From assembly GCA_030697795.1 (NCBI GenBank), contig JAUYOV010000004.1, forward strand, positions 211,334-275,333: a stretch of DNA of 64,000 bases, written 5' to 3'. The DNA comes from a bacterium (lineage in GTDB: Bacteria; Patescibacteriota; Minisyncoccia; JACQLN01). The translations under genes and the position numbers were made by a program. This document shows positions 3,201 through 38,003 of this stretch, piece by piece (positions within the stretch are counted from its first letter, which is position 1; each line of letters begins with the position of its first letter). The notes beneath the pieces were generated by a model. That model saw only the letters and a list, made by a program, of their open reading frames with translations. It was not told where the DNA came from and ran no database searches.

Positions 3201-3367
3201 AAAATTACTTAGTTACTTAATTAGGTATTACTTATTTTACCTTAAGAAATCTTCATTGACAATGAAGCGTTTTTACTAGAAAATACCTAAATATTGGGCG
3301 ACCCGCCAAAGGCGGGTAAAGTGGCAGATTTAGTCGCCTTTGGCGACCGCACAAGACTCAAAATCAA

Positions 3368-3604
3368 ATGATATCTGTTTATGTAATTAGAAGTAAAAAT
3401 AAAAACTTTCGATATGTTGGCATAACAAATAACATAAATGAGAGATTGGAAAGACATAATACAGGCAAAAACAAATCGACAAGAAATTATGCTCCTTTTG
3501 TACTGACCTATTCAGAAAAATATAAAGACTATAAAGAAGCAAGGATGAGAGAAAAATTTTTAAAAAGCGGAGTTGGAAGAAAATTTTTAGATAGTTTACA
3601 ATAA
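3368..3604 (+). CDS. GIY-YIG domain protein (UPF0213-like small nuclease)
   Basis: ISVYVIRSKN..FRYVGITNNINERLERHN matches the GIY-YIG signature. 78 aa. Ends 8 nt before the tRNA-Leu gene. Confidence 0.6.
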   Translation: MISVYVIRSKNKNFRYVGITNNINERLERHNTGKNKSTRNYAPFVLTYSEKYKDYKEARMREKFLKSGVGRKFLDSLQ

Positions 3605-11134: not shown

Positions 11135-11145
11135 GTAATACTAAT

Positions 11146-11243
11146 TTACGAATTTATGCGAATGATACGAATACTATATGCGAATATTTTTATTCGTGCA
11201 TCTATTTGTATAATTCGTATGCATTCGTATATTGGCATTGCAC
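11146..11243 (+). repeat. About 95-bp repeat Y, copy 1 (TACGAAT heptamer array; between the leuS stop and the tsaC start)
   Basis: Homologous to 16283-16367. Four ACGAAT/GCGAAT direct repeats at about 10-bp spacing, then inverted ATTCGTAT copies. Confidence 0.8.
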
Positions 11244-13729
11244 TATACCACGAAGTTAATAAACCTGTCTTTAATAAAAATAACTTTTTTTACGGGGGAG
11301 ACAAGATACTTAGAAATATTTTTGTTGTTTTTAGCCGCCGTTTCAACCTCTTTTTGAGAAGAATCTGCTGGCATTTTAATAACCGCGCGCATTCTGGCAT
11401 TAACCTGCACTACTATGTCTACCTCCTTGTCTTTGACCAGTTTAACGTCAAACTTTGGCCAAGGCGCTATATGAATAGATTTTTTATTCTTTAAAATTTC
11501 TCTAAATATTTCCTCGCTCATATGTGGTGCAAAAGGCGCTAAAATCTTAGCAAAAATTTCTAGTTCGCTTTTGCCAACAGATTCTATATTGGCTTCAAAT
11601 TCATTTAACAAAACCATTAAAGCCGAGACCGAAGTATTGTAATTTAAATTTTCTAAATCTTCTGTAACTTTTTTGATTGTCTTGTGTATCTTTGTTTGTA
11701 TATTGGAATTTGCTTGCCCTTCCGAAGCTCTGAAAGAGCGAAGGAGGGTGATTTGTTTAGAAATTAGAAATTGGGAATTAGAAATTTTCCAGATTCTTTC
11801 CAAGAATCTGATTATCCCTTTTATACCACCATCTCTAAAATCACCACCTTGATCGAACGGACCCAAAAACATTAAGTACATTCTTAAAACATCGGCGCCG
11901 TAATTTTTAATATATTCGTCGGGATTAACCACATTCCCCTTGGATTTTGACATTTTAGCGCCATCTTTTATTAACAAACCGTGGGCACGGAATTTTTTAA
12001 ATGGTTCGTCAAAATTAGTTAAACGCAGGTCCTTGAATACCATTGCTAAAAAACGCACATACAATAAATGCAAAACAGAATGCTCCGCGCCACCAATATA
12101 CATATCTACCGGGCACCATTTTTTAGTTACAGATTGATCCCAAGCGTATTTCTTTTCTTTAACAGAAGCATAACGCAAATAATACCAAGCCGAATCTAAG
12201 AAAGTATCGGAAACATCGGTCTCGCGTCTCGCCATACCTTCGCATTTAGGGCATTTAACTTTATAAAATTTTTCATCGGCCGCTAAAGGCGACTGGCTCG
12301 TACCAGTTGGCCTAAAGTTTTTTATGTAAGGCAATCTAACCGGTAAATCTTTTTCGGGCACCACAACCCAACCTGGATTTTCCAACTCTCCCAAATTAAA
12401 TTCTCCCTTATTTTTGAGATTTGATTTTTGAGATTTGATTTTTTCTGCGCAGTTTTCACAGAAAACAAGCGGTATAGGCGCACCCCAATAACGCTGTCTG
12501 GAAATTAGCCAGTCACGAAGCCGGAATTGAATTGTTTTTTTACCTCCACTCTTTTTTATTCCTTCTTCAATAGAGACTAAAGGTGCGCTACTCACTGGTA
12601 ATTTGAATTTTTGGGCAAATTCTAAATCACGCTCATCGTGCGCTGGAACACCCATAACTGCGCCTGTGCCGTAACCTGCTAAAACATAATCCGAAATCCA
12701 AACCGGAACTTTTTCGTTGTTGGCTGGGTTAATGGCCGAGATACCAGAAAAAACTCCTGTTTTTTCTGGACCCCGACCCTCATGAGGCGTCGGGGTTATA
12801 TTATTTTTTATATACTCCCTGACCTCATTCGGCGCTTGCCAGCCGATATCTAACCAAGACTTTGCTTTCTCGGGCGAAATTGCAATAAACGTTACACCAA
12901 AAACTGTATCTGGGCGTGTAGTAAAAACTTCCAAATACGCCGATTCACGCTGATCTGACGCAGATTTACGCAGAAAAATTCCGCGTTGATCCGCGTTAAT
13001 TTCCGCGTTGATCCGCGTAAGGGGAAATTTTATAGAAGCACCTTCCGATTTACCTATCCAATTTTTTTGAGCTATTTTTACTTTTTCGCTCCAATCTATT
13101 TTATCTAAACCTTTTAAAAGTTTATCGGCGTATTTAGTTATTCTAAAAAACCATTGCTCTAATTCTTTTTTAATAACTTTAGTATTACATCTTTCACATT
13201 CACCACTTATTACTTGTTCATCGGCTAAAACTGTTAAACACGAAGGGCACCAATTAACCGCCGATTTTTTGCGGTAAGCCAAACCATTTTTATATAACTG
13301 AATAAAAATCCATTGAGTCCATTTATAATATTCAGGGTCGTAAGTTTCTAGTTTTTCGTGCCAAGCAAAACCATTGCCTATCATTTGCAGTTGGCGATAA
13401 AAATTTTTCTCGGAAACTCTGGCTTGATCCATCGGGTGTTCGCCAATTTTTAAAGCGTAGTTTTCGGAATGTATGCCAAAACCATCTAAACCAATCGGCT
13501 CAAAAACGTTATAGCCCTGCATTCTTTTAAATCGCCCGTAAATATCGCTCCCCACAAAAGCGTACACATTACCCACGTGTAAGCCTTCAGCTGAAGGATA
13601 TGGAAACATCATTAGGTTATAGAAAGGATTCTTAGCGTTTTTAAGATCCGGTTCGTAAACCTTCTCGGCCAGCCATTTTTTGCGCCATTTAGATTCTACT
13701 CTCTTGTGGTTGTATTTAGCCATTTGCAT
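11243..13729 (-). CDS. leuS: Leucyl-tRNA synthetase, carrying several low-complexity or repeat-derived in-frame insertions
   Basis: HIGH-type motif HVGNVYAF; KMSKS; editing-domain TTRPDT. Inserts at about 11717-11750, 12410-12450 and 12979-13023. Confidence 0.9.
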   Translation of the reverse strand: MQMAKYNHKRVESKWRKKWLAEKVYEPDLKNAKNPFYNLMMFPYPSAEGLHVGNVYAFVGSDIYGRFKRMQGYNVFEPIGLDGFGIHSENYALKIGEHPMDQARVSEKNFYRQLQMIGNGFAWHEKLETYDPEYYKWTQWIFIQLYKNGLAYRKKSAVNWCPSCLTVLADEQVISGECERCNTKVIKKELEQWFFRITKYADKLLKGLDKIDWSEKVKIAQKNWIGKSEGASIKFPLTRINAEINADQRGIFLRKSASDQRESAYLEVFTTRPDTVFGVTFIAISPEKAKSWLDIGWQAPNEVREYIKNNITPTPHEGRGPEKTGVFSGISAINPANNEKVPVWISDYVLAGYGTGAVMGVPAHDERDLEFAQKFKLPVSSAPLVSIEEGIKKSGGKKTIQFRLRDWLISRQRYWGAPIPLVFCENCAEKIKSQKSNLKNKGEFNLGELENPGWVVVPEKDLPVRLPYIKNFRPTGTSQSPLAADEKFYKVKCPKCEGMARRETDVSDTFLDSAWYYLRYASVKEKKYAWDQSVTKKWCPVDMYIGGAEHSVLHLLYVRFLAMVFKDLRLTNFDEPFKKFRAHGLLIKDGAKMSKSKGNVVNPDEYIKNYGADVLRMYLMFLGPFDQGGDFRDGGIKGIIRFLERIWKISNSQFLISKQITLLRSFRASEGQANSNIQTKIHKTIKKVTEDLENLNYNTSVSALMVLLNEFEANIESVGKSELEIFAKILAPFAPHMSEEIFREILKNKKSIHIAPWPKFDVKLVKDKEVDIVVQVNARMRAVIKMPADSSQKEVETAAKNNKNISKYLVSPVKKVIFIKDRFINFVV
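11717..11750. repeat. Small palindromic repeat family (core CGAAGCTYTRAGCGAAGGAGG), copy in frame inside leuS
   Basis: Shares the core with copies at 10430-10470, 14263-14293, 35714-35770, 41711-41776 and 53781-53812. Confidence 0.7.
12979..13023. repeat. ATCCGCG-unit GC-rich repeat (TTCCGCGTTGATCCGCGTTAATTTCCGCGTTGATCCGCG) in frame inside leuS
   Basis: Related copies lie in ileS (34941-35009) and polX (48637-48676). All three are in minus-strand genes. Confidence 0.7.
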
Positions 13730-14690: not shown

Positions 14691-14707
14691 GTTTTTGAGA
14701 AAAAAAT

Positions 14708-14785
14708 ATCATTCCGAACAGCATTATGGAGAAGACTAATTTATAAATAAAGAGGCTCCATATCGTCTGTGAGGAATGATATTTT
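14708..14785 (+). repeat. About 78-bp structured repeat X, copy 1 (upstream of tatD)
   Basis: About 90% identical to 29077-29157. Nested inverted repeats (TCATTCC/GGAATGA; ATGGAG/CTCCAT). Confidence 0.8.
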
Positions 14786-14787
14786 TA

Positions 14788-16269
14788 CTAGTTTAATCTA
14801 GGAAACAAATTCTCGCCTTTCTTAAAGTTTATTGCGGATTCTGTAAACCAGATTTGTTTTCTAATTTTTTCGCCTGTTTCTGGTAAAAATGGTTCAACCA
14901 AATTTAGTATAACACCTAGCAAGTAGCCAGAATTAGCCATAACTTTCCTAAGATTTTCAGTTGAAACCACGTTTGACGTGGCGTCTTTAATTTCCCAAGG
15001 TTTTTTATCGTTAATATATTTATCGGCAAAAGAAACCAAACCCCAAACATTTATTAAAGCTTCGTGTAATTTAATTTCGTCTAAAGAAGATTCATATGCT
15101 TTATAAAAATCGTTGCAAGCTTTTTTAACTTCTGGTTCTATATCCGTAGCAAAATCAAACTTTACCGGGTTTATTTTTTCGCCCAAAGTAACTGTGCGCG
15201 CTACCAAATTTCCTAAACCATTAGCTAAGTCTGCGGAATATCTATCTTCAAACTTTCTTAAACTAAAATCTCCGTCATCGTAAGAAGGAATTTCTCGTAA
15301 AAGATAGTAACGTAACGCATCTGTGCCATATTTTTGAACCAGTGGCACAGGATCCACAATATTACCCAAACTTTTAGACATCTTTTGCCCTTCCACCGAA
15401 ATAAAACCATGAACAAAAATAGCTTGGGGTAATGGCAAACTAGCCGATAAAAGTATACCCGGCCAAATAGCCGCATGAAAACGTAAAATATCTTTGCCTA
15501 CAACTTGAAGATCGGCTGGCCAAAGTTTTTTAAATTGCTCGGTTTCATCGCCATAGCCAATAGCTGTAATGTAATTAGCTAAAGCATCACACCAGACGTA
15601 TATAACTTGGTCGGGATCGCCAGGCACCGGTACGCCCCACGGCAAATCTTTTTTAGGCCTAGAAAAGCTAACATCCTCTAAACCAGATTCTATAAAAGAT
15701 AAAATTTCATTTTTACGAGATTCGGGAATTATTTTTAATTCGTCATTTTTAATTTTAGAAGCAATCTGGCTTTGATATTTTGAAAGCCTAAAAAACCAGT
15801 TTTCTTGTTCTACTGTTTCTGGTGCTTTTTGGTGATCGGGGCATTTACCATCCACCAAATCTTTTTCTGTTTTAAAAGATTCGCAACCCACGCAATAAAG
15901 CCCGTTGTATTTTTTCTTATAGATATCACCGGCTTCCGAAAGTTCCTGCCATAATTTTTGAACACCTGGCCAATGAACTTCTTGATCGGTTGTTCTAATA
16001 AACCCATCCCAAGAAAGATTTAAAACATTTTTTAACTGTTTAAAATATTCTGCGTTTTCGTTTACAAATTCCTGTGCATTTTTATTCTCTCTTTCGGCTG
16101 CGCGAAAAATCTTAACACCGTGTTCGTCGGTACCCGTTAAAAAGAAAACTTCATCACCTTTTATTCTGTGATAACGCGCCAAAACATCCGCTTGAATCTT
16201 TTCTAAAGCGTGTCCAATGTGCGGTTTCGCATTAACATAATCAATGGCGGTTGTAATATAAAACTTCAT
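14788..16269 (-). CDS. metG: Methionyl-tRNA synthetase (short form, no C-terminal tRNA-binding domain)
   Basis: HIGH motif PHIGHALE and KMSKS; Met-RS catalytic core. 493 aa. Confidence 0.9.
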   Translation of the reverse strand: MKFYITTAIDYVNAKPHIGHALEKIQADVLARYHRIKGDEVFFLTGTDEHGVKIFRAAERENKNAQEFVNENAEYFKQLKNVLNLSWDGFIRTTDQEVHWPGVQKLWQELSEAGDIYKKKYNGLYCVGCESFKTEKDLVDGKCPDHQKAPETVEQENWFFRLSKYQSQIASKIKNDELKIIPESRKNEILSFIESGLEDVSFSRPKKDLPWGVPVPGDPDQVIYVWCDALANYITAIGYGDETEQFKKLWPADLQVVGKDILRFHAAIWPGILLSASLPLPQAIFVHGFISVEGQKMSKSLGNIVDPVPLVQKYGTDALRYYLLREIPSYDDGDFSLRKFEDRYSADLANGLGNLVARTVTLGEKINPVKFDFATDIEPEVKKACNDFYKAYESSLDEIKLHEALINVWGLVSFADKYINDKKPWEIKDATSNVVSTENLRKVMANSGYLLGVILNLVEPFLPETGEKIRKQIWFTESAINFKKGENLFPRLN

Positions 16270-16282
16270 AAGTATACTAATC

Positions 16283-16367
16283 TACGAATCTATGCGAATT
16301 ATACGAATGGATTTAACGAATATTTGTAACTTATTTGTATCATTCGTATCCATTTGTATATTGGCAT
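16283..16367 (+). repeat. About 85-bp repeat Y, copy 2 (immediately upstream of the metG start)
   Basis: See copy 1. Confidence 0.8.
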
Positions 16368-16369: not shown

Positions 16370-17410
16370 TTAATTTTCTTCGTGATGATGTCCAAAATCT
16401 TTTATAATTTCCACTAAAACTACAGCTACCGGCACCGCAAGAATTATGCCCGGTATGCCAAAAAGTTCACCACCCACCAGCAAAGAAATTATAACGATAA
16501 CCGGGTTAAGACCGATAACTCGGTTCATTATATTAGGCACAAAAACATGATTTTCTAACTGGTGCACAATAGTGTAAACAAGAAGCACCCAAAGGGCTAC
16601 TATGGGCGATTTTAATAAACCCAAAATTACAGCAGGCACCGCGGCCAGTACCGGCCCAAATATTGGAATAATTTCCATAATACCTGCCACCAAAGCCAAG
16701 AGAACTCTGTGATTAATTCCAAAAATCAAAAGCCCAATATAAATTAAAACGCCAACTATTAAACTAAGCACCAACTGCGCTTGCAACCAACGGCCCAGTT
16801 TGTATTGAGCGCGAGACCATAAACCCAAAACATAGGGCTGTTTTTCTTTGGGTGTAACCGCACGCAAAAACATACTAATACCGTGTTCTTGGGCCGCTAA
16901 ATAAAAAGAAATAACAATAACAAAACCTGCAGAAATAAATCCGCCAAAAATTCCGCTGGTAGCTCCAAAAATATTTCCAGAAACATGCGCCAGATCGTTA
17001 CTGATAGCCACCAGATTATCTTGGACCTTGTTTAACAATTGTTCATACTGTGGCGCAGAATCTCTTATGACCTTAAAAAAACCATTCACCTTATCAAAGT
17101 AAACCGGCACAGTTAAAGAAAGATTGCCTAATTCGTCCGACAAAGGAGAAATTATAAAATAAAGTATTGTGCCCAGTACCAAGAATGCTAAAAGGTAAAT
17201 AACAAAAACACCCAAGGTTCTGGGAATGCCTTTGCCCTGAAAATAATTAGCCAGAGGTGTCACCGCCGCCGCAATTATTATAGAAAACAAAAGCACCGCT
17301 ATGACGTCGCGGATTAAATAAACTAAGGCTAAACCCAGCACAATAGCAAAACCACGGAGTAGGGTTTCCGTGTTTATGCTGATATCGGTATGAGCTAACG
17401 GAGATTTCAA
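16370..17410 (-). CDS. AI-2E family (UPF0118/PerM-like) transporter
   Basis: 346 aa, about 8 TM helices. Topology and length fit the AI-2E family. Confidence 0.6.
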   Translation of the reverse strand: MKSPLAHTDISINTETLLRGFAIVLGLALVYLIRDVIAVLLFSIIIAAAVTPLANYFQGKGIPRTLGVFVIYLLAFLVLGTILYFIISPLSDELGNLSLTVPVYFDKVNGFFKVIRDSAPQYEQLLNKVQDNLVAISNDLAHVSGNIFGATSGIFGGFISAGFVIVISFYLAAQEHGISMFLRAVTPKEKQPYVLGLWSRAQYKLGRWLQAQLVLSLIVGVLIYIGLLIFGINHRVLLALVAGIMEIIPIFGPVLAAVPAVILGLLKSPIVALWVLLVYTIVHQLENHVFVPNIMNRVIGLNPVIVIISLLVGGELFGIPGIILAVPVAVVLVEIIKDFGHHHEEN

Positions 17411-18712: not shown

Positions 18713-19621
18713 TTAAAAATAGAATAGCAGTTTTTGTTTTATATTAAAACCCTTACAATGCCTCAAAACTCCCAAATACGAATCTACATTTTTCTCATTA
18801 ATCTTTCTTAACATCCTTCTTTTTGTTTTAGTCCTCAAAACCCTATGGTTAGGCAAAACCACATAACCCAGAAAATCTATACCCTGCCTGTATTTACGAA
18901 TAATTATTTTGTCTGGATGCAAAAATAGCTTTAGATTCTCAAAAAGAAAAGTATTAATTTTGTAAGACAGATTTAATAAATAATATTTATTACTTCCTAA
19001 AATAACAAAATCATCGCAGTAACGAATATAATACTTTTCTTTTAAGTTATGTTTAACAAATTGGTCTAATTCGTTTAAATAAATATTGGCAAATAACTGG
19101 CTGGTTACATTGCCTAAGGGTAACCCTTTGTTAAAACTACCTATTATTTTCTCAACCAACCATACAGCATTATCGTCTTTGATCTTTAGTTGAATCAATT
19201 TAATTAGAGCATCTTGATCTATGGAATCAAAAAACTTTTTAATATCACACTTTAAAGCAAAAATAGTTTGGCTATTGTTTTGGCTTAACTTACGACAAAA
19301 AGTTTCTAGTCTTGTTACTGCTTTGTGTGTTCCTTTGCCTATTCGGCAAGAATAAGAATCAAACATAAAATGTCTATCGAATATTGGATATAAAACTCTA
19401 AAAACAGCTTGATGTAAAACCCTGTCGCGTACACAAGCTTTATGGATATGACGCAATTTTGGGTCGGTAACATAAAAAGGAATATACTGGCTGTGTTTAT
19501 ATGTTTTATTTTTTAATTCGCTATGCAGTTGAAACAGATTATCTTCTAGGTTAAAATCAAATTCTTGAACATCCAACCTTTTTCTTTTGCCTTTTTTAAA
19601 TTCGCGCCAAGCTAAAAACAA
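18713..19621 (-). CDS. DGR reverse transcriptase (RT1)
   Basis: Matches DGR RTs along its length. N-terminal LAWREFKKGKR. Motif 4 is LGNVTSQLFANIYL, the I/LGxxxSQ DGR hallmark. YxDD motif is YCDD. Confidence 0.85.
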   Translation of the reverse strand: MFLAWREFKKGKRKRLDVQEFDFNLEDNLFQLHSELKNKTYKHSQYIPFYVTDPKLRHIHKACVRDRVLHQAVFRVLYPIFDRHFMFDSYSCRIGKGTHKAVTRLETFCRKLSQNNSQTIFALKCDIKKFFDSIDQDALIKLIQLKIKDDNAVWLVEKIIGSFNKGLPLGNVTSQLFANIYLNELDQFVKHNLKEKYYIRYCDDFVILGSNKYYLLNLSYKINTFLFENLKLFLHPDKIIIRKYRQGIDFLGYVVLPNHRVLRTKTKRRMLRKINEKNVDSYLGVLRHCKGFNIKQKLLFYF

Positions 19622-20055: not shown

Positions 20056-20180
20056 CTCTTTTGTTTGGAAACTACCAGAGGACGACCAGCTATGTTGTCG
20101 TTGCGATTGCTAGACCAATTGTAGTTGACGTTGGCTAGACCACCGTTCTCACGGTTACCACCGTAAAGCCGGCTGGAGTC
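20054..20180 (-). repeat. DGR template repeat TR1 (AAC-rich on the minus strand)
   Basis: About 127 nt, nearly identical to 20491-20618. All 8 differences are A in TR1 versus C/T/G in VR1. TR1 encodes GGNRENGGLANVNYNWSSNRNDNIAGRPLV. Confidence 0.85.
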
Positions 20181-20431
20181 CTCAAATTTTTGCTTTAAAC
20201 CGTCCATAATCACCGAAAATCTAAATATAAATTTTCTGAAATCCGCATCCCACGGATAGTTTTTTACTCGGCAACTCTTAAATAATCTAAGAATACCCGA
20301 TCTAGTTTAAAGCAAGGAGTTTCGTTATTTCCTGTTTTAAACAGGAGAGTAAATGCGAGAATAAACCTTAGTCTATTCTTCATTAGCTTTACTCAAGGAA
20401 AATTTTACCAAATTTGTGAAAATAAAAAAAT

Positions 20432-20486: not shown

Positions 20487-21320
20487 CTACTTTGCGAAAC
20501 TCACCAGAGGACGACCAGCTATGCTGCCGCTGCGATTGCTAGACCAATCGTAGTTGACGTAGGCTAGACCACCGTACTCACGGTGACCACCGTAAAGCCG
20601 GCTGGAGTCCTCAAACTTATCGTCGAACCACTCCCACATATTGAATCGGCCGCGATTGCTGTCGTAGAGATTGCCAATGGCATTGGACTCTACAGCCCGC
20701 TCCAACCGAACCTGTTCGGGTTTGAAACCGAATGCTTCGGCGATAGCAGGACAAACCACATCTCGCCATTCATCGTTGGTAATGGCAAAACGAGAGCCCG
20801 AAGGAGTATTATCGTGTTTGCCGATTTTTCCTTCTTCGCGCAATTTACTGATGATTAGCGCGAGAGGGTCATTGGAAAATACTTGCGTGCCGTCGGTGTA
20901 ATTCACACCGACGGTGAAATCAGCTAGATACCAACCTCTGTAGAGTTTGGCACTGTCGGGGGCGAGCTTGCCTTCCCCGATTTTCTGGTAGAACCATTTT
21001 TCAGGTTTTACCCAATTCTTGAGCTTGCAATTCTCGCCAATTCCTTCCATCGGCAGATATACCGGCCTGAAGTCGAACCCAGCCCACTTGGCCAAGTTCT
21101 CTTCGGTGAATTCGGGAGGCAGAGGATCAACATCCACACGGAAGAACTTTTGAAGCTTCTTCTGTGTTGCCTCCACTAAAGCTACCAGCAAAGACACTAT
21201 GCGATGTTCGTTGAAAGCTTTAACACTTTCCAAAGTGTGACTGCCGTCATCTATCTGACGGAAAAAATCTTTGAGCACGCCGGACCACGCCGACATCTCA
21301 CCGACTGGGGCATTAGCCAT
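20487..21320 (-). CDS. DGR target protein 1 (FGE/C-type-lectin-like C-terminal variable domain); GC-rich
   Basis: VR1 lies at the C-terminus. The pattern WEWFDD...RLYGG...GRPLV resembles FGE-type CLec folds. Strong SD AGGAGA upstream. Confidence 0.75.
   Translation of the reverse strand: MANAPVGEMSAWSGVLKDFFRQIDDGSHTLESVKAFNEHRIVSLLVALVEATQKKLQKFFRVDVDPLPPEFTEENLAKWAGFDFRPVYLPMEGIGENCKLKNWVKPEKWFYQKIGEGKLAPDSAKLYRGWYLADFTVGVNYTDGTQVFSNDPLALIISKLREEGKIGKHDNTPSGSRFAITNDEWRDVVCPAIAEAFGFKPEQVRLERAVESNAIGNLYDSNRGRFNMWEWFDDKFEDSSRLYGGHREYGGLAYVNYDWSSNRSGSIAGRPLVSFAK
20491..20618 (-). repeat. DGR variable repeat VR1 (3-prime end of target 1)
   Basis: Encodes GGHREYGGLAYVNYDWSSNRSGSIAGRPLV at the C-terminus of the 277-aa ORF. 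Confidence 0.85.
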
Positions 21321-25542: not shown

Positions 25543-25870
25543 ATAGATGAATTGTATCGTAACAAGAGAAAAATATCACGCTAAAGGAATGTTATAATAT
25601 TCATATCCTGCTAATGCAGTTTGAACCATGGTTCAAACTCGCGGGATATCTCATTTTTGCCTTTCCGCCAAAGCTTTACGGGCGGTAAAAGAATCGCCAG
25701 AGTATTAAACCTTACGGGGTTTAATAGCGTGCGAACTAAAATGGAGATGGAACTTCTTGCTTGTTTTTGGTGGAGATTCCGCCAAAGGCGGATGCTCCCA
25801 AGTAAAATTCAGGAAAGAAGAAACATAAATTTCATACTTTCCGGTGATATTGGATGGAAACAAGCAAAAT

Positions 25871-25992
25871 CTTGACTCCGATGGCAACCGCGTTAGCGTC
25901 GGCAACTTCGATCAGAACGGCCTCAACATCAACAACAACTGGGACGATAACCGCAACGACAATCTTGGCCTGGCCTCCTCTCGAACTTCCAT
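25871..25992 (+). repeat. DGR template repeat TR2 (AAC-rich on the plus strand, non-coding location)
   Basis: Matches the reverse complement of 27629-27749. Encodes VGNFDQNGLNINNNWDDNRNDNLGLASSR, versus VR2 VGDFDRFGLYFDYDHDDNRYDSLGLASSR. Confidence 0.75.
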
Positions 25993-26037: not shown

Positions 26038-26388
26038 TCAATGAGTTTTTGACGAGCGGATCCAACCGCCTAACATCCGCCCTATCTCATTAACCATTTC
26101 CTGAATTAAAATATATTTTTTATTCTCTAAAACACCAATATCTTTAGCCAAGCGGACATAAACCCTAAAAAGATTGAGCTTAACACTAACTCTTTCTAAG
26201 TATGTTACTCTTTTGAGCTTATCCAAACTGCTTATTTCCAACAAATAGCCCAATATCTCAATCAAAATCAAATTGCATTTCTCGCCTAAAGAATACTTGT
26301 CTTGCTTGGGAAAACCTTTCAAACAAGCATAAAATTCTTTATATAAATCGTAGGTTTTTTTAAATAGCGGAATATCAAAACTATCCAT
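26038..26388 (-). CDS. avd: Avd-like accessory variability determinant (avd2)
   Basis: 116 aa. C-terminus EIGRMLGGWIRS. Paralog of avd1 and avd3. Start diverges from RT2 with a 2-nt overlap. Confidence 0.75.
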   Translation of the reverse strand: MDSFDIPLFKKTYDLYKEFYACLKGFPKQDKYSLGEKCNLILIEILGYLLEISSLDKLKRVTYLERVSVKLNLFRVYVRLAKDIGVLENKKYILIQEMVNEIGRMLGGWIRSSKTH

Positions 26389-27382
26389 GAAAATTTATCA
26401 AAATATATACGAACAAATAATCTCTGCCGAAAATTTGTTTCTAGCTTGGGCAGAATTCAAAAAAGATAAACAAAAAAGAAAAGACGTTATGCAATTTGAA
26501 TACAGGCTGGAAAAAAATATTTTAGGCTTGTGCCAAGAACTAAAAAATCAAACATATAAGCATAGTCCTTATAGTAATTTTTATATAACCGACCCCAAAC
26601 CCAGGCACATTCACAAAGCATTGGTTAGAGACAGAGTGGTGCACCATTCAGTTTTTAATATCCTTAATCCTGTTTTTGAAAAAACTTTTATCTTTAATTC
26701 TTATTCCTGCAGAAAAAACAAAGGCACTCACAAGGGCATAAACCAATTACACAAAATTTTAAGAAAAATAAGCCAAAACAATCATAAACCATGCTTTATA
26801 TTAAAATGCGATATTAAAAAATTCTTTCAATCAGTTAATCACGGTATTTTGTTAAATATTATTGATCGAAAAATATACGATGAAAAAGCATTGGCCTTAA
26901 TTAAAGAAATTGTAGAGAGTTTTAAACCCGGGTTGCCCATAGGCAACCTAACCAGCCAATTATTTGCCAATATTTATTTAAATAATCTGGACCAATATAT
27001 AAAGCACCATTTAAAAATTCCCTTTTATATAAGATATACCGATGATTTTGTGATTATTTATAACGATTTGGAAAAACTAAAACAGTGGCTTAGCCAGATT
27101 CAGGAATTTTTAAATGTAAACCTAAAACTACGTCTGCATCCCAATAAAGTTATTCTGCGCAAATATCATCAAGGAACTGATTTTTTGGGCTATGTGCAAT
27201 TTCCCCATTATTGTATTTTGCGCCCTAGAACCGAAAGAAGAATAATGAAAAGGATACAGCAGGGAGTTTCTGAACAATCGCTAAATTCATATCTAGGTGT
27301 GCTTTCTCATGCTAATAGTTATAAATTATCGGAAAAAATCAAAAACTTGTTTTGGTTTAATAAAAAAGAAAACCCGTCTTGA
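26387..27382 (+). CDS. DGR reverse transcriptase (RT2)
   Basis: IGNLTSQLFANIYLN (SQ motif); IRYTDDFV. Matches RT1 and RT3 along its length. Confidence 0.85.
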   Translation: MKIYQNIYEQIISAENLFLAWAEFKKDKQKRKDVMQFEYRLEKNILGLCQELKNQTYKHSPYSNFYITDPKPRHIHKALVRDRVVHHSVFNILNPVFEKTFIFNSYSCRKNKGTHKGINQLHKILRKISQNNHKPCFILKCDIKKFFQSVNHGILLNIIDRKIYDEKALALIKEIVESFKPGLPIGNLTSQLFANIYLNNLDQYIKHHLKIPFYIRYTDDFVIIYNDLEKLKQWLSQIQEFLNVNLKLRLHPNKVILRKYHQGTDFLGYVQFPHYCILRPRTERRIMKRIQQGVSEQSLNSYLGVLSHANSYKLSEKIKNLFWFNKKENPS

Positions 27383-27427
27383 TGGACGAGTTAAAAAATA
27401 ATTATAATTCCACAATTAAAAATTACG

Positions 27428-27463
27428 TTGGTTGGTTGGTTGGTTGGTTGGTTGGTTGGTTGG
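27428..27463. repeat. Microsatellite (TTGG)9
   Basis: Perfect tetranucleotide tandem repeat between the RT2 stop and the target 2 stop. Confidence 0.9.
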
Positions 27464-27622: not shown

Positions 27623-28396
27623 CTATTTGGAACTTCGAGAGGAGGCCAGGCCAAGACTGTCGTAGCGGTTATCGTCATGGTCGTAGTCGAAGTAGAGGCC
27701 GAACCGATCGAAATCGCCGACGCCAACGCGGCTGCCATCGGAGTCAAGAGACGAAGTTCGGACATAGGTGTGTTCGAACAGTCGCTCACCAGTAGCCATG
27801 AAGTGGCCAATGATGGCGTAGACCACCACTTGCGCCTTCGGTGTTTCCTCGTCTTTGCCGAGTAGCTTCTGCTGATCATCCCAAGTCTTGGACGTGGAAT
27901 CCATAACCGGAGTTTTGCGGACGAGATGCCATCCGACTTCGCCCTTGTATTTGGCAAAAGTCTCCTTGTTGTACCAATCCTGTTCATAAAACAGGCGCTG
28001 ACCGTTGTTAGCGACCTTGCCTCGGATGTCCAGGATTGAGAGAGGAAAAATGGCGACAAGGGTATGCGTGTCTCTTGCCTCGGTAAGCTCGGCTTCAGTG
28101 AACGGAACTTCGGCCAAAGCCGAGATCTGCGCTCGCGTGGGCTTTACACCGAGATACTGAATCGCTTCCTCTACCCCAAACATGTTGCGCCCCATTATCT
28201 GATGGGCCGTTTTCTGCGAAGTGGTGGCTTCATAGCCGCCGTTGCTGATAAGCCTAACCACTTTCGTGGCAAGGTCATTGCCCTTGGAGCCTATGACTCT
28301 CTGGGCAAGTTCATCGTTGAGGCCAGCGGCCTCAAGTTTTAGGAGCACTTCATGCTCTTTGTGCACCGACAGAGTACGGCTCACGATGGTTTCCAT
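27623..28396 (-). CDS. DGR target protein 2 (C-terminal variable domain); GC-rich
   Basis: 257 aa. VR2 at the C-terminus. Strong SD GGAGGT upstream. Confidence 0.75.
   Translation of the reverse strand: METIVSRTLSVHKEHEVLLKLEAAGLNDELAQRVIGSKGNDLATKVVRLISNGGYEATTSQKTAHQIMGRNMFGVEEAIQYLGVKPTRAQISALAEVPFTEAELTEARDTHTLVAIFPLSILDIRGKVANNGQRLFYEQDWYNKETFAKYKGEVGWHLVRKTPVMDSTSKTWDDQQKLLGKDEETPKAQVVVYAIIGHFMATGERLFEHTYVRTSSLDSDGSRVGVGDFDRFGLYFDYDHDDNRYDSLGLASSRSSK
27629..27749 (-). repeat. DGR variable repeat VR2 (3-prime end of target 2)
   Basis: See TR2. About 13 mismatches at TR adenines. In addition, one codon differs at all three positions (TGG in TR, CAT in VR) and there is one C/T difference. 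Confidence 0.75.
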
Positions 28397-29038: not shown

Positions 29039-29076
29039 AAACGGTAAAAGTATAACATGTATCCTAAATTAAAATT

Positions 29077-29157
29077 ATCATCCCGAACAGCATTATGGAG
29101 AAGACTATCTTATATAAATAAAGAGGCTCCATATCGTCTGTGAGGGGTGATAATTTT
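29077..29157 (+). repeat. About 80-bp structured repeat X, copy 2 (upstream of recO-like, divergent from the GT39 gene)
   Basis: See copy 1. The outer stem shows a compensatory change (TT/AA to CC/GG). Confidence 0.8.
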
Positions 29158-29211
29158 TCTTAAAAACTTGCTGGCGAGCGAAAGAGCAATTTTTAAGCTA
29201 AACTATTAAAC

Positions 29212-32447: not shown

Positions 32448-33794
32448 ATGAATAATCTAACTCCTAGGCAAAAACAAATCCTTGATTTTGTAACTAAATA
32501 TAGCAATAAGAAAGGCTATGCTCCTTCCCATAAAGAAATCGGGAAATATTTTAAACTTACTTCCTCTGCCACCATTAATGAGCACCTAGATGCCATTGCA
32601 AGTAAGGGTTATATAAATAAAGAAAAACATCAAAAAAGAAATATAGAAATTAAATCTTTAGAAACATTGGTTTCCGTACCCCTTGTTGGAACCATCACGG
32701 CTGGTGAACCAATAGAAACATATGAAATCCCAGAAAAAATATCAGTACCAAAAAACCTTTTATCTCAACAGGGTGAACACTTTGCTTTAACAGTTAATGG
32801 TAATAGTATGATTGGCGAAGGAATTTTTAGTGGAGATACAGTGATTGTTCGTAAGCAAGATACTGCAAAAGACGGAGATAGTATAGTTGCACTTATAAAT
32901 GGAAGTGAAACAACATTAAAAAAGATATATAAAGAAAAAAATGGCTTTAGGCTTCAACCAGCTAATCCAGAACTCAAACCAATATTTGTAAAACAACTTG
33001 AAATACAAGGCAGGGTTATAAGTGTCATTCGTAATCTAGAAACCTTAGTAAATAAAATTAACTGTGGCGATGTTTTGGAAACAATTAAAAAAATACCAGA
33101 AAGTTCAGTACACCTAGCAATAACTTCCCCGCCATATAACGTTGGAAAAAGCTATGATAATCATAACGATAAAATGGAGTATTCTGACTATCTTGATTGG
33201 TTGTATAAAGTTTGGCAGGAAACAAAAAGAGTTTTAGTTCCTGGTGGAAGATTTGCTATAAATATTGCTCCAACTGGTATAAAAGATTTTGTACCAATAC
33301 ATCACGATTTTATAGCTCAACTCAGGAAACTCGGAATGAAATTTCGAACAGAAATTATATGGTACAAACAAACAATGCTAAAACGAACTGCGTGGGGAAG
33401 TTTTAAAAGCCCAGCCAACCCACATATTGTTCCGTCTTGGGAATATGTTTTGATTTTCTCTAAAGATCAAGATCGTTTAGATGGAGATAGTAAAATGGCT
33501 GATATTACCAAAGATGAGTTTATGAAATTTTCCGATGGATTTTGGCAGATTTGGCCAGAAAGACAAAGAAAAGGACATCCAGCTCCATTTCCCGAAGATT
33601 TAATATATAGATTAGTAAAATTCTATTCCTATAAAGATAGTACTATTTTGGATATGTTTGGAGGAACAGGCACAGTAGCAACTGTAGCCGCCAAAACTGG
33701 TAGAAATTTTATACACATAGATGTTTCTCCTCAATACTGTAAAATCGCTAAAGACAGACTAGAAAAAGAAATTAACCAAGGAAAGTTAGTTTAA
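32448..33794 (+). CDS. Fusion protein: LexA-like repressor (wHTH plus S24 self-cleaving peptidase) fused to a beta-class amino (N4/N6) DNA methyltransferase
   Basis: Residues 1-200 match LexA (HTH; Ser in VNGNSM; catalytic Lys in TLKKI; C-terminal QGRVISVIR). Residues 200-448 carry MTase motif IV SPPY (LAITSPPYNVGKSYD) and an AdoMet motif (DMFGGTGT). Confidence 0.7.
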   Translation: MNNLTPRQKQILDFVTKYSNKKGYAPSHKEIGKYFKLTSSATINEHLDAIASKGYINKEKHQKRNIEIKSLETLVSVPLVGTITAGEPIETYEIPEKISVPKNLLSQQGEHFALTVNGNSMIGEGIFSGDTVIVRKQDTAKDGDSIVALINGSETTLKKIYKEKNGFRLQPANPELKPIFVKQLEIQGRVISVIRNLETLVNKINCGDVLETIKKIPESSVHLAITSPPYNVGKSYDNHNDKMEYSDYLDWLYKVWQETKRVLVPGGRFAINIAPTGIKDFVPIHHDFIAQLRKLGMKFRTEIIWYKQTMLKRTAWGSFKSPANPHIVPSWEYVLIFSKDQDRLDGDSKMADITKDEFMKFSDGFWQIWPERQRKGHPAPFPEDLIYRLVKFYSYKDSTILDMFGGTGTVATVAAKTGRNFIHIDVSPQYCKIAKDRLEKEINQGKLV

Positions 33795-34364
33795 TTTGTT
33801 TGAATACCAATTAACAAGGTCTTTGGCTAAACTACTTAATGCTTTTAACTTGCCTCCTAATTTAGTTTTGTTGTTTTCAATATATATTCCGTCTGTATAA
33901 TGGGAACCTAGTTGTCTATCTTTTGTTGGACTTTCTTCACTACCCCATTCTGACTGCCAAGACCGCCCACTTTGCTGTCTTCCTTTGTCAGGAGTAGAGA
34001 AAACAAATTTTAAACTTGGAATCATATCTTTTAAAACAACAGCATAAAATAATGATTCTGAAAGTCTTCCGTGTAAACTAGTTTTACAACTTATAATTGC
34101 AACGGGATTGTTGTTTCCATCAACTACAACAAGATCTATATCGCCCCAAATTCTTTGATTAGAATTAATTTTGCCAACGGGAATACTAAGTTTTTTCCAT
34201 AAACTACTATCATTTCTAGCATCATCACCTCTTATGACTTTTAATTTAGATTTAAGAGAAATCAAATCTTGATTTACTTTATCTCTGACAAAATGCTCCC
34301 AAGCTCTACCGCTTTTTTGGACATATCTTTGTCTTTGACTATTTGTTTCGTAGTTATTAGGCAT
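33786..34364 (-). CDS. Putative PD-(D/E)xK restriction endonuclease, convergent with and overlapping the methyltransferase by 9 nt
   Basis: Core GDIDLVVVDGNNNPVAIISCKTS fits the D...(D/E)xK pattern. 192 aa. Confidence 0.4.
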   Translation of the reverse strand: MPNNYETNSQRQRYVQKSGRAWEHFVRDKVNQDLISLKSKLKVIRGDDARNDSSLWKKLSIPVGKINSNQRIWGDIDLVVVDGNNNPVAIISCKTSLHGRLSESLFYAVVLKDMIPSLKFVFSTPDKGRQQSGRSWQSEWGSEESPTKDRQLGSHYTDGIYIENNKTKLGGKLKALSSLAKDLVNWYSNKLN

Positions 34365-34370: not shown

Positions 34371-37300
34371 TTAAATATTTTTAATCCCCACCCCGATTTC
34401 AAATCCTTCATAATTCCAAACTTTGTGGACCAAGAAATTTTCGTGTTCGGTTATGCCAAAGTTAATTTGTGTAGAACGAGTTTCGGCTTTTATAACTTGT
34501 TCCCAACGAGTTAATAATTCTTTAAAGTTGGCGTTTTGGTTAAGTTCGTAATGTAAAATTATTTTATCTTCTGGTGTTAATTTGGCTTCTTTTCGCATTT
34601 CGTTTATATTGCGAATCATTTCACGAACCATTCCTTCTTCCTTAAGCTCCGCCGTAAGTTCGGTATCCAAATTAACGTTGTTCTTTTCTATTTTTCTATC
34701 ACTTAAAACTTTTTTAACATTGAGTTCTTCGGCAACTATATATAGAACATCGCCAATTAAATTGTAATCAGCCGGTGAAACATATAAAGCATTTAAGGGC
34801 TGGCGTACGCGCAAACCCGCTTGAGCGCGCTCGGCAAGCCCCAGCGCCACAATTTCGCGGGCTCTATCCATGACTTTCGTAATATCGGAAGCCTTAACAG
34901 TTTTGGTATTTGGCCATTTTTCCAAATGAACCGACTCCCCAAACGCCGATAAACGCCGATTTTTATCCGCGCTGATCCGCGCTGATCCTTGCGTTAATCC
35001 GCGTAATTCTTGATAGAGCCATTCCGATATAAACGGCGCAAATGGCCCCATAACAACAGATACGCGTTTTAAAACTTCGGTTAAAGTATTTTGAGCCGAT
35101 AGTTTTTCGGCATCTATATTTTGCTTTTGGAACTTACGGCGGCTACGGCGTATATACCAATTAGAAAGTTCGTCTATAAAAGCTTCTATAGCACGCGAAG
35201 CGGAAGTAATGTCGTAGCTTTCTAAAAATTTATTTACTTCGAACTCCAACATTTCTGTTTTAATCAAAACCCATTTATCTAAAATATCTGTTTTGGCTAG
35301 TAAAGATTTCGGAGCTTCGGTGTAATAAGTTTCTAAAAACAAAAACGAATTAATTAAAGTATCGGCGAATCTACGTTTTTTAGATTCTATATCGCGCAAA
35401 CTAAAAAGTTTATTATCGCCCGGCGCGTTTACAGTGTAAAAATACCAACGCATCATATCGAACCCAACTTTCTCACCCACCAGCCAAGGGTCTACAATGT
35501 TCCCTTTAGACTTCGACATCTTCTCGCCCTTTTCATCTAGAACATGGTTTAAACTAATTACATTCTTATACGGATTACCTTCGCCTAAAGCGGTAGATAC
35601 CGCCATTAAAGTATAAAACCAGCCCCGGGTTTGATCGATCGCTTCGCAAATATAATCTGCTGGAAAATGGTCTTTCGGTAAATTTTTATTTTTTATATTT
35701 AAATTTTTCTTGTCCTTCGAAGCCTTGCTGTGCCACTCCGTAGCTTTGAGCGAAGGGTGGGCGTAGGAGGAAACTTGAGACGCCCACGGCATTGCACCCG
35801 AATCAAACCAAACATCGGCCAAGTCTTTTATACGTTCCATCTTCGAGGAACACATAGAACACTTAAGGAACACGCTATCGGCATAGGGGCGATGCAGGTT
35901 TAAATTGCCTTCTTCATCGTGGGGCCAGTTATTTGTTTCTACAAAAGTAAATTCGGCAGGGGACAAAGCTAGTTTAGAATCTTTAACTGCGTTTTGATAC
36001 AAAAGTTTTGTTTCGTCTTCGCCATAAATTCCATTAGATAATTGCATTAAAAATAAGGGGTCCATATGGCTTACCACAACCACCTTCTTGCCAGCGTGTT
36101 CTCTAGAAACATCCATCATAAATTCGCGCACCCGTTTGGCCACATCCAACCACGATTCGCCTGCCGGCGCGGGGCGAATAAATTTATCTTTAAAAGAATT
36201 AAAATATTTTTCATATTCCAAAAATGGCCCGCCATTAAACTCGCCAGTGTTTATTTCGCGTAAGCGTTCATCAAAAATTACTTCTTTTATTTTAAGTTCG
36301 TCCGCCAATATTTGAGCCGTCTCTCTGGCTCTTAATAGATCCGATGAATATATGGCCGATACCTTATTAGCCGCCAAAAGTTTTTTTATATTTTGGGCGG
36401 ATGCCTCTGCTTGTTTTCTACCCTTTTCGGTTAGGGGGTTTAAAATCTTTTCAGGGTAAGCACTGCAAATACCTTTAGCGTTAGATTCTGCTTCGCCATG
36501 GCGCATTAAAATTAAAGTGGTTGGAGAATCTAGGCGGTGTTCGTTAAGCTCGGCTAAAGAACCAATAACAGTTTTGTGTTCGCATTTGGTGCATGCCCAA
36601 ATTGGCAAGGGTGTTCCCCAATAGCGTTCGCGGCTTATAGCCCAGTCTTTAACCTCGCGTAACCATTCGCCAAACCGGCCATCTTTAATGTGTTCGGGCA
36701 CCCAATTAACTTTTTCGTTATTTTTAATTAGATCGTTTCTTAACGCCGACATTTTTATAAACCAACTTTCTTGGGCGTAATATAGTAAGGGCGATTTACA
36801 CCTCCAGCAAAAAGGATATTCGTGCTTATAGCTTGACTCATTAAACAGCAAATTTTGTTTTTTTAAGTAAAACAAAATCGTTTTTTCGGTTATGGGGTCT
36901 TTTTTGTTTTCACTAACAACAGCAAGCCCGCCTACTATAGGAACAGATTTTACAAAAACTCCTTCACGATTAACCGTGTGGAATTTAGGCAAATTTAATT
37001 TGGAACCGAGTTCAAAATCGTCGACGCCATACATTACGGCTGTATGCACAATGCCCGTACCATCTGCGGTAGTTACAAAATCGGCTTCGTAAACTCTGTA
37101 CGAATTTTCGGATTCCAACTCTTTAACAGCAAAAAGTGGTTCGTAAGAAAGTCTAGTAAGCTCGCTAGAAGTTAGTTCTTTATTTATTTTGTATTCTACT
37201 TTAGCCTCGCCAAAAACTTTAGGCGCTAAATCGCGAGCCAAAATATATTTTTCACCATTAGCTTCGACTTCTACATAGGTAACTTTCGGGCCAACAGCTA

Positions 37301-38003
37301 ACGCAACATTTCCCGGTAACGTCCAAGGCGTCGTGGTCCAAGCCAAAAGAAAAGTGTTTTCTCCGCCAGCTGGCGGATTTTTAACTTTAAATTTTATTAT
37401 GACCGACTTATCTGTAACTGTTTCGTAACCCTGCGCCACTTCGTGGCTGGAGATGGGCGTACCACACCTAACACAAAAAGGCACAACTTTATAATCTTTA
37501 ACTAAAAGTTTTTTATCGTAAATTCTTTTTATAATATTCCACAAACTTTCTATGTATTGCGGTTCGTAGGTTATGTATGGGTTTTTAAGGTCGAGCCAGT
37601 AACCCATGCGGCGCGTTAGCTTTTCCCATTCATCTTTATACTGCCAGACTGATATTTGGCATTCTTTATTAAATTGAGCGATGCCGTATTTTTCTACTTC
37701 GCGCTTATTTTTTAAACCTAATTTTTTTTCGACTTCAATTTCTACCGGCAAACCGTGTGTATCCCAACCAGCCCGACGCAAAACATAGCGCCCTTTCATT
37801 GTTTGAAAACGGCAAACAATATCTTTAAACGATCTAGCTAAAACATGATGGAGCCCTGGTTTACCGTTGGCCGTAGGCGGGCCTTCGTAAAATACGAAAG
37901 GTTTACCATCTTTAGTGGCTTTTAAAGTCTTTTCAAAAACATCGTTATCGTGCCAATGTTTTAAAACTTTTTCTTCTTCTTGGGGTAAATCAACGTGACG
38001 CAT
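34371..38003 (-). CDS. ileS: Isoleucyl-tRNA synthetase with an inserted histidine-phosphatase (PGAM-like) domain and repeat-derived in-frame inserts
   Basis: HIGH-type motif PPTANGKPGLHHV; KMSKS; editing domain. The insert LILMRHGEAESN...VVVSHMD (RHG and second His motifs) sits between WACTKCEH and LHRPYAD. Confidence 0.9.
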   Translation of the reverse strand: MRHVDLPQEEEKVLKHWHDNDVFEKTLKATKDGKPFVFYEGPPTANGKPGLHHVLARSFKDIVCRFQTMKGRYVLRRAGWDTHGLPVEIEVEKKLGLKNKREVEKYGIAQFNKECQISVWQYKDEWEKLTRRMGYWLDLKNPYITYEPQYIESLWNIIKRIYDKKLLVKDYKVVPFCVRCGTPISSHEVAQGYETVTDKSVIIKFKVKNPPAGGENTFLLAWTTTPWTLPGNVALAVGPKVTYVEVEANGEKYILARDLAPKVFGEAKVEYKINKELTSSELTRLSYEPLFAVKELESENSYRVYEADFVTTADGTGIVHTAVMYGVDDFELGSKLNLPKFHTVNREGVFVKSVPIVGGLAVVSENKKDPITEKTILFYLKKQNLLFNESSYKHEYPFCWRCKSPLLYYAQESWFIKMSALRNDLIKNNEKVNWVPEHIKDGRFGEWLREVKDWAISRERYWGTPLPIWACTKCEHKTVIGSLAELNEHRLDSPTTLILMRHGEAESNAKGICSAYPEKILNPLTEKGRKQAEASAQNIKKLLAANKVSAIYSSDLLRARETAQILADELKIKEVIFDERLREINTGEFNGGPFLEYEKYFNSFKDKFIRPAPAGESWLDVAKRVREFMMDVSREHAGKKVVVVSHMDPLFLMQLSNGIYGEDETKLLYQNAVKDSKLALSPAEFTFVETNNWPHDEEGNLNLHRPYADSVFLKCSMCSSKMERIKDLADVWFDSGAMPWASQVSSYAHPSLKATEWHSKASKDKKNLNIKNKNLPKDHFPADYICEAIDQTRGWFYTLMAVSTALGEGNPYKNVISLNHVLDEKGEKMSKSKGNIVDPWLVGEKVGFDMMRWYFYTVNAPGDNKLFSLRDIESKKRRFADTLINSFLFLETYYTEAPKSLLAKTDILDKWVLIKTEMLEFEVNKFLESYDITSASRAIEAFIDELSNWYIRRSRRKFQKQNIDAEKLSAQNTLTEVLKRVSVVMGPFAPFISEWLYQELRGLTQGSARISADKNRRLSAFGESVHLEKWPNTKTVKASDITKVMDRAREIVALGLAERAQAGLRVRQPLNALYVSPADYNLIGDVLYIVAEELNVKKVLSDRKIEKNNVNLDTELTAELKEEGMVREMIRNINEMRKEAKLTPEDKIILHYELNQNANFKELLTRWEQVIKAETRSTQINFGITEHENFLVHKVWNYEGFEIGVGIKNI
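34941..35009. repeat. ATCCGCG-unit repeat in frame inside ileS
   Basis: AAACGCCGATAAACGCCGAT...ATCCGCGCTGATCCGCGCTGATCC..TAATCCGCG. Confidence 0.7.
35714..35770. repeat. Small palindromic repeat family, copy in frame inside ileS
   Basis: CCTTCGAAGCC...CCGTAGCTTTGAGCGAAGGGTGGGCGTAGGAGG. Confidence 0.7.

Follow-up and report, generated by a model that had tools for sequence, protein, structure and literature searches.

Three minus-strand genes (leuS, ileS and polX) in a 64-kb stretch of an AT-rich Patescibacteria/Parcubacteria metagenome-assembled genome (MAG) each carry a GC-rich island built of 7-nt ACGC(G/A)GA units, here called the array element. We propose, with moderate confidence, that these three islands are copies of one family of propagating hairpin repeats, selfish or neutral, which are translated through. 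The whole 64-kb stretch is referred to below as the window. A preliminary description had noted GC-rich islands in the three genes and attributed them to a propagating nucleotide element rather than to convergent protein evolution; the islands proved to be real, as both the motif clusters and the profile matches reported below indicate, and the codon phases, the orthologues, the codon choice and the recurrence of the array all favour that attribution.

Array copies in leuS, ileS and polX

The hexamer CGCGGA is not over-represented in the window overall (22 copies vs 17.3 ± 3.7 expected), whereas 11 of its 16 minus-strand copies sit in three tight clusters: one in leuS (12980-13017, four units, spacing 10/12/10), one in ileS (34966-35003, three perfect units and a degenerate one, spacing 10/22) and one in polX (48636-48673, four units, spacing 10/12/10). 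When 22 CGCGGA hexamers are placed at random, one such triple cluster arises in 0.026% of trials. The single motif is at its random frequency, and it is the arrays that are clustered far beyond chance. All three islands lie in-frame within their open reading frames (ORFs) on the minus strand, which carries most genes of the window, and their GC content is 51-59%, compared with 38% for the window. We also built a profile from 19 clean arrays, a set picked for four units; it matched the leuS and polX copies with nhmmer (E-values listed below) and the ileS copy in two weaker pieces, and found no further match in the 64-kb window. The near relatives of LeuS, IleS and PolX of the window are all Patescibacteria. 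The host genes and the parts of the element are as follows.

11243-13729, minus strand: leuS, leucyl-tRNA synthetase; the array stands directly before the CP1 'VFTTRPDT' strand
12980-13018, minus strand: 5' arm of the leuS copy, four ACGCGGA units, encoding TRINAEINADQRG; nhmmer E=1.7e-11
12937-12979, minus strand: loop (12975-12979) and 3' arm of the leuS copy, encoding (I)FLRKSASDQRESA; match to the inverted array E=4.9e-6
12925-13030, minus strand: whole leuS hairpin, its stem lengthened by the host flanks AAATTTCC and GGAAGTTT
34371-38003, minus strand: ileS, isoleucyl-tRNA synthetase with an inserted His_Phos_1 domain; the array lies between 'EWLYQ' and 'SVHLEKWP'
34943-35004, minus strand: ileS copy, partly decayed, encoding LRGLTQGSARISADKNRRLSAF
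47770-49536, minus strand: polX (PolX/PHP); the array is at the tip of the thumb beta-hairpin
48636-48674, minus strand: polX copy, a single arm of 39 nt, 13 codons encoding VAERRGSKRGFTR; nhmmer E=1e-10

The core array is 38-39 nt long and consists of four ACGC(G/A)GA units at a spacing of 10/11-12/10, in the pattern [N]CGC(G/A)GA-3 nt-ACGCGGA-4/5 nt-ACGCGGA-3 nt-ACGCGGA. The unit number is four in the 19 clean arrays, which were picked for it, and three-unit arrays were also seen in genes. A unit number that varies between close relatives and causes phase variation is the mark of simple-sequence contingency repeats. In many copies both 17-nt halves are identical, spacers included, while the spacers vary from copy to copy; thus, the array appears as an internally duplicated block of approximately 22 nt. 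A loop and an inverted array may come after the core array, giving a hairpin of approximately 85 nt. The self-complementary CGCG core allows even a single arm to fold, with pairing of the outer units (1 and 4) and of the inner units (2 and 3); this explains why the central spacer is longer. We discarded the observation that the perfect arm is always the 5' one, as it follows from hairpin geometry and is uninformative. Of the 3 reading frames, 2.42 are open for the array in the sense orientation, compared with 1.52 for random 39-mers, and 1.68 for the array in the antisense orientation.

The leuS copy has both arms. The preliminary description placed this island at 12979-13023; it is present there, but its extent was taken too small, since a second, inverted arm reaches 12937 and the stem covers 12925-13030. 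The units of the 5' arm (13018-13012, 13008-13002, 12996-12990 and 12986-12980) are separated by the spacers TCA, AATTA and TCA, and its two 17-nt halves are identical. The 3' arm (12937-12974) pairs with it and is made of the inverted units TCTGCGT, TCTGCGT, TCAGCGT and TCGGCGT at a spacing of 10/11/10. Folded as RNA, the hairpin has a minimum free energy of -48.1 kcal/mol (z=-6.6). At this site 15 relatives have approximately ten residues (DVTGQKDGKH) and the protein of the window has 26, so that relative to them 30 nt are replaced by 78 nt. The whole LeuS protein is 52 residues longer than its closest relative, with four inserts in comparison to the 81%-identical orthologue.

In polX the insertion is clean, and the gene differs from its 87%-identical orthologue in a syntenic relative by exactly 39 extra nt. 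The units TCGCGGA, GCGCGGA, ACGCGGA and ACGCGGA are separated by the spacers AAG, TCAAA and TTT, and the empty site TAT AAG/GGT GAG becomes TTT AAG/GTCGCGG...ACGCGG/AAA GAG when filled. There is no target-site duplication here, since the filled and the empty site differ by 39 nt and the flank is unduplicated; the flanks are complementary to each other (CCTCTTT at 48679-48685 and AAAGAGG at 48630-48636). The single arm folds with -23.3 kcal/mol (z=-3.7) by means of the CGCG cores. A short, seven-residue empty loop (consensus F[KR]G.K.I) was present in approximately 45 of the 80 metagenomic polX loci that were fetched, and the structure of Thermus thermophilus PolX (3AU2) is likewise devoid of the 13 insert residues. 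In an AlphaFold2 model of PolX (mean predicted local distance difference test score, pLDDT, of 84) the insert is a loop between strands 284-289 and 301-306, at a beta-hairpin tip, where pLDDT falls below 50.

The ileS copy is made of ACGCGGA (35004-34998), a degenerate unit ACGCAAGGA (34994-34986) and two GCGCGGA units (34982-34976 and 34972-34966), and keeps two inverted units TCGGCGT (34959-34953 and 34949-34943). Its peptide had been given as 'ISADQRG', which was a misreading of GSARISADKNRRLSAF. The six closest relatives do not have the element in ileS, and where copies of it are found they decay in different units in different lineages. The same protein holds a complete histidine-phosphatase (His_Phos_1) domain at approximately residues 500-670, as do all Patescibacteria relatives found. 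Taken over the three genes, alignment with the closest orthologues (81-88% identity) bore out the expectation that the elements would be absent from them.

Nucleotide-level conservation and recurrence in other genomes

The three genes read the same units in different phases: as TR / AE / AD / RG in leuS, as AE / RG / RG / TR in polX and as RG / .. / AR / AD in ileS, so that all three codon phases are used. We further compared the codons of five insert-bearing polX orthologues with 62-74% protein identity to that of the window. Within the units Arg is always encoded by CGC, Gly always by GGA and Thr always by ACG, although GGA, CGC and ACG are minority codons in this genome (16%, 24% and 19%, respectively). 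An identical codon was found in 5 of the 6 invariant degenerate columns inside the insert in comparison to 6 of 132 outside it (Fisher p=6.9e-6). Outside the insert synonymous sites are saturated, and within it the spacers drift while the unit nucleotides stay invariant. These frozen codons rule out the case in which the similarity would come from shared peptides under differing codon choice, a case which the preliminary description had named as its own refutation. As judged from these alignments, the repeat acts at the nucleotide level and the islands share a common nucleotide-level origin.

The motif scan across genomes covered one genome per species, and its results hold among the matches listed. 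It recovered the 39-nt array at other sites, in other genes and in other genomes. Arrays of period 10/11 occur in Saccharibacteria, Wolfe-, Jorgensen-, Moran-, Lipton- and Doudnabacteria and in Paceibacterota. In a Parcubacteria leuS (P0011, 67% identical protein) the sequence ACGCGGATCAACGCGGAAGATTACGCGGATCAACGCGGA matches the window leuS array at 36 of 39 positions and stands at a different position of the gene, and a Saccharibacteria leuS has a hairpin of 4+4 units at the same site as the window copy. We counted at least 12 independent in-frame arrays in the sense orientation and at least four in the antisense one. This bias of approximately 12:4 is not significant (p=0.08) and fits the fact that more frames are open in sense than in antisense (2.42 vs 1.68). 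Among the host genes are topA, recG, uvrB (in two lineages, at the same site), ppdK, infB and femAB, to which a second site in ileS, a Wzy-type ligase, an EF-G-like GTPase and the C-terminus of leuS can be added. Some arrays are intergenic and do not split genes, and single-arm copies (polX; a leuS locus of GCA_016204035.1, L001) are as common as two-armed ones. An EF-G/LepA-like GTPase comes from a Saccharibacteria MAG (L115, 1-2043); it has a PD-(D/E)XK nuclease (PDDEXK_3) domain within its GTP-binding domain and also carries an antisense array of the ACGCGGA type.

Related arrays were found farther away. Period-10 ACGCGGAT arrays, often with an inverted partner, occur among the matches listed in Chloroflexota, Acidobacteriota, Planctomycetota, Gemmatimonadota and Xanthomonadales-type genomes, and GC-rich phage contigs have several period-10 arrays per contig directly upstream of ribosome-binding sites and ATG. 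One IMG/VR phage contig (GC approximately 0.6) contains five (ACGCGGATNA)x3 arrays (L226 2934-2960, 8240-8266 and 9018-9044; L276 119-145 and 494-520), each of them followed by TCGGA(A/G)GGA, a short spacer and ATG. This position suggests that in phages of GC-rich hosts such arrays may have a regulatory or processing role. Most matches in the genome and viral scans were period-6/12 Asp-Ala coding repeats of high-GC genomes, which are unrelated and were set aside.

In polX, ileS, leuS and uvrB the same codon position is filled in distant lineages and empty in the closest relatives of the window. On a neighbour-joining tree of PolX the window allele is nested among empty-site relatives, one of which is its sister, and alleles that bear the element turn up in at least five separate places. 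All element-bearing polX alleles share flanking changes, namely Y to F and GD/GE to KE (F..KE[V/I]), and over approximately 75 nt the window resembles these alleles more than it does its nearest relative (five sequences), which is suggestive of a conversion tract of that length.

Other repeats and genes of the window

Further repeats in leuS (12410-12443 and 11757-11786) and a palindrome at 62163-62192 had been taken as signs of the same tendency. All three exist and are inserted in comparison with the nearest orthologues; however, they belong to separate families, as the two leuS repeats are AT-rich (18-20% GC) and the GC-rich core of the palindrome is unrelated. The insert at 12410-12443 is an in-frame, lineage-specific, perfect 14-nt repeat of 2.4 copies (KIKSQKSNLKNK), which is common to a 66%-identical JGI orthologue with a nested 'SSFAKASADRQ' insert. 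At 11750-11790 an arm of TCTAAT / ATTAGA(A/G) units lies in-frame and encodes ISNSQFLISKQ, and the 81%-identical orthologue does not have it; the same units form a third family of tandem-unit hairpins at the intergenic sites 53700-53785 and 62690-62815 (z=-3.0 and -5.0). A lineage-specific, GC-rich, in-frame segment 'SFRASEGQAN' is found at approximately 11690-11730. The palindrome, perfect over 14 nt (TCGGGACGTCCCGA), lies within an in-frame insert of 8 residues (PSTTLGTS), absent from the syntenic relative, in a beta-CASP RNase J-like gene (61307-62692); its family is other than that of the ACGCGGA arrays. A further hairpin family in a housekeeping gene of the candidate phyla radiation (CPR) is seen in the leuS of GCA_016204035.1 (L001, approximately 3350-3430), where the in-frame insert PVRSSLAEVRRTRDKVASETSNG is encoded by a nested palindrome whose ends are perfect inverted repeats of 12 nt (CCCGTTAGAAGT...ACTTCTAACGGG).

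Between genes, hairpins at 11138-11238 (downstream of leuS) and 16274-16367 (downstream of the gene at 16370-17410) have RNA z-scores of -2.3 and -3.4. Their arms are tandem ATACGAAT / ATTCGTAT units, that is, the architecture of the GC-rich family with an unrelated, AT-rich unit. An intergenic repeat of approximately 90 nt, 85-92% identical between its copies, lies at 14702-14789 and 29071-29160, downstream of two unrelated genes. In the syntenic relative the spacers contain another repeat ('ttttcgctcctgcaaggagg...'), and thus the small intergenic repeats are lineage-specific.

The window also contains three diversity-generating retroelements (DGRs), each with an RVT_1 reverse transcriptase and two of them with bAvd genes. 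In DGR 1 (18713-19621) the repeats are at 20074-20189 and 20503-20618, in DGR 2 (26038-27382) at 25870-25991 and 27628-27749, and in DGR 3 (38023-39443) at 39447-39572 and 39905-40030; the variable repeats lie at the C-termini of the ORFs 20487-21320, 27623-28396 and 39903-40547, respectively. Mismatches between template and variable repeats fall almost only at coding-strand adenines (8/8, 24/25 and 13/18). One DGR has a perfect (GTTG)x9 microsatellite (27427-27463) between its reverse transcriptase and target genes. RVT_1 and bAvd genes were not seen in the segments of the syntenic relative fetched around leuS, ileS and smpB. Another ORF (32448-33794) fuses LexA DNA-binding and S24 peptidase domains to an N6/N4 DNA methyltransferase and runs into the end of a convergent gene (33786-34364) for a BsaWI-like restriction endonuclease; its domains suggest the fusion of an SOS-type repressor with a methylase that belongs to a restriction-modification pair. 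Neither the DGR cassettes nor the restriction-modification pair in the window is linked to the arrays. Membership of the arrays in a DGR was rejected, as the template/variable repeat pairs lie elsewhere and the array profile matches none of the three DGRs.

Possible origin and spread of the array element

Among known systems, the closest analogue of the array element is the Rickettsia palindromic elements (RPEs), which are dispersed palindromic repeats found between genes and, with unusual frequency, in-frame in unrelated housekeeping genes (Ogata et al. 2000, 2002, summarised in PMC10969869). Like them, the array element occurs both between genes and in-frame in unrelated housekeeping genes, where the peptide is tolerated, and it forms a stable hairpin; no transposase has been identified for either. 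RPEs, however, are approximately 100-150 bp long, belong to the Rickettsia families RPE-1 to RPE-10 and have no tandem units, whereas the array element measures 39-87 nt, has four 7-nt units at helical-turn spacing and resides in Patescibacteria, with related period-10 arrays in other phyla and in phage contigs. By description, the two are set apart. Repetitive extragenic palindromic (REP) sequences, and the bacterial interspersed mosaic elements and REPINs made of them, are similar in being short, GC-rich, imperfect palindromes in many copies with direct and inverted repeats. REPs are extragenic by definition and have a GTAG or CGTC head (PMC3733652); in contrast, the three window copies are all inside ORFs, and the 19 aligned arrays start with [ACGT]CGC(G/A)GA, none of them with such a head. 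REPs co-occur with a gene for a REP-associated tyrosine transposase (RAYT); no Y1_Tnp domain was found in the 64 kb of the window, whose ORFs were scanned with Pfam or inferred by synteny.

Transposable elements of the miniature inverted-repeat kind (MITEs) such as Correia, ERIC and BOX are likewise small, non-autonomous and hairpin-capable, and some MITEs create in-frame fusions (PMC10969869). The array element differs from them in having neither a target-site duplication nor terminal inverted repeats distinct from the arms, and at 39 nt it is much smaller. No parent insertion sequence was found among the window ORFs, and the two-armed copies are themselves inverted repeats. GC-rich hairpins scattered in an AT-rich genome, protein-coding genes included, are also known as mitochondrial GC clusters and as the translational-bypass (byp) elements of yeast mitochondria. 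The latter, which Lang et al. reportedly described in 2014, are said to break the reading frame and to be skipped by the ribosome. Every genic array copy that was classified, on the other hand, lies in a read-through ORF of at least 150 codons (543-1172 for the housekeeping enzymes). The DNA uptake sequences (DUS) of Neisseria and the uptake signal sequences (USS) of Pasteurellaceae are single motifs at approximately one per kb, frame-independent in coding regions and spread by recombination. The array element resembles them in the frame-independent conservation of its motif in coding regions and in its inverted pairs between genes, but the single unit is not over-represented here and only rare four-unit arrays are seen; a DUS-like function is therefore unsupported. 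No description of such elements turned up in the literature searched on CPR bacteria, and only the review on RPEs and MITEs was relevant, although the literature covered is incomplete and a prior description is possible.

Several explanations compete with a propagating repeat. Selection at the peptide level, convergent or conserved, for an Arg/Gly/Asp-rich surface loop could be read from the loose likeness of the peptides (INADQRG, ISADKNRR and RRGSKRG), but it is scarcely credible, given that the unit is read in different phases in the three genes, that rare codons are invariant in the insert and that identical arrays occur in intergenic DNA and in the antisense orientation. We also find it decidedly improbable that the arrays arose in situ, by slippage duplications of 10-22 nt and a snap-back or template-switch origin of the inverted arm in length-tolerant loops, in which case the likeness between genes would reflect a shared mutational bias and not the spread of one element. 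It is true that the halves are often identical, spacers included, while the spacers differ between arrays (L001, L043, L047, L072, L214 and window leuS), that the same loops hold unrelated tandem-unit families elsewhere (A-rich KIKNQ/KLKTK units in polX and TTAGAAA units in leuS), and that at the leuS site complementarity already exists between the host flanks. However, the 7-nt core, the unit number and the spacing are common to unrelated genes and genomes, the leuS arrays of the window and of P0011 agree at 36 of 39 positions at different sites, and the polX orthologue has no sequence that could have seeded a de novo origin. Local duplication probably shapes the arrays without explaining their shared identity.

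The main rival reading takes the arrays for functional nucleic-acid elements kept by selection; we give it some weight, while considering it unlikely. The arrays might be helically phased sites for a DNA-binding protein, as the units at 0, 10, 22 and 32 lie on one helix face, or RNA hairpins whose GGA motif is bound by an RNA-binding regulator, CsrA-like or other, or else RNA structures that pause translation or direct mRNA processing. The unit ACGCGGAUGA may resemble the CsrA consensus RUACARGGAUGU from systematic evolution of ligands by exponential enrichment. Such a function would fit the invariance of unit nucleotides at synonymous sites in the polX orthologues, where the spacers drift, the conserved 10/12/10 spacing in the 19 arrays and the location of the phage arrays directly upstream of a ribosome-binding site and ATG. 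Against it stands the absence of all three copies from the closest relatives of the window, whose genes are intact, as well as the differing positions of the element in orthologous leuS genes. The ileS copies, each decaying in a different unit, argue against a strict nucleotide-level function. In the two-armed copies C occurs 17 times as the partner base, T and A 9 times each and G 4 times; the imperfect 3' arm thus lacks the excess of G-U wobbles that would mark a conserved RNA stem selected at the RNA level. No binding protein was identified, and Rfam gave no family match: at the gathering threshold only generic, miRNA-like hairpin noise was found for the window and five related loci, and at a permissive E-value only miRNA-like hairpin noise for the leuS element.

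We thus return to the propagating repeat, which we infer to be selfish or neutral and, from the open frames, to undergo translation instead of removal. The family would spread at the DNA level within and between Patescibacteria genomes, its copies landing or being copied into many places. Selection would act as a filter, such that genic survivors keep the frame, contain no stops and lie in surface loops of large housekeeping enzymes; after transcription and translation these survivors would add 13-28 residues that serve no required function. The copying may be templated, either by recombination or gene conversion between alleles or by template switching of replication at pre-existing short inverted repeats. 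Insertions without duplication or with replacement (30 nt in leuS), together with re-used sites and complementary flanks, make templated copying likelier than cut-and-paste transposition. The pattern in polX, ileS, leuS and uvrB fits repeated acquisition at a preferred site or exchange of short allelic segments by recombination; it also fits a single old insertion followed by many losses, with constraint at the nucleotide level.

Several points weigh against propagation. There is no transposase or RAYT among the window ORFs, no terminal inverted repeats beyond the arms and no target-site duplication were found, and no filled/empty polymorphism was seen within one population. The re-used codon positions and the shared polX flanks could reflect old alleles exchanged by recombination instead of repeated insertion, and the perfect conservation of units across orthologues could come from purifying selection on a nucleic-acid function.

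A broader version of the idea, which we consider quite doubtful and offer tentatively, is that the arrays are members of a class of hairpin repeats with a 10-11-nt period, very widespread and undescribed in the literature found, that spread without a transposase by templated copying. The routes would then be recombination after DNA uptake, template switching, or reverse transcription by DGR-type reverse transcriptases, and small, intergenic-poor CPR genomes would force the arrays into surface loops of essential enzymes. DGR-type reverse transcriptases are abundant in CPR genomes. If such a class exists, the arrays would be a major source of lineage-specific insertions in CPR proteins.

To our knowledge, palindromic repeats that code for protein have so far been regarded as peculiar to Rickettsia. 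With its frozen synonymous sites and re-used codon position, the array element is a tractable case for studying how short repeats spread without a transposase. If the propagating-repeat reading is true, it would account for some of the lineage-specific insertions that are puzzling in CPR housekeeping proteins, and annotators and phylogeneticists would be warned against taking such segments for homologous characters of a protein. Selfish DNA invading essential genes would then be a recurrent outcome in small, gene-dense genomes, beyond Rickettsia.

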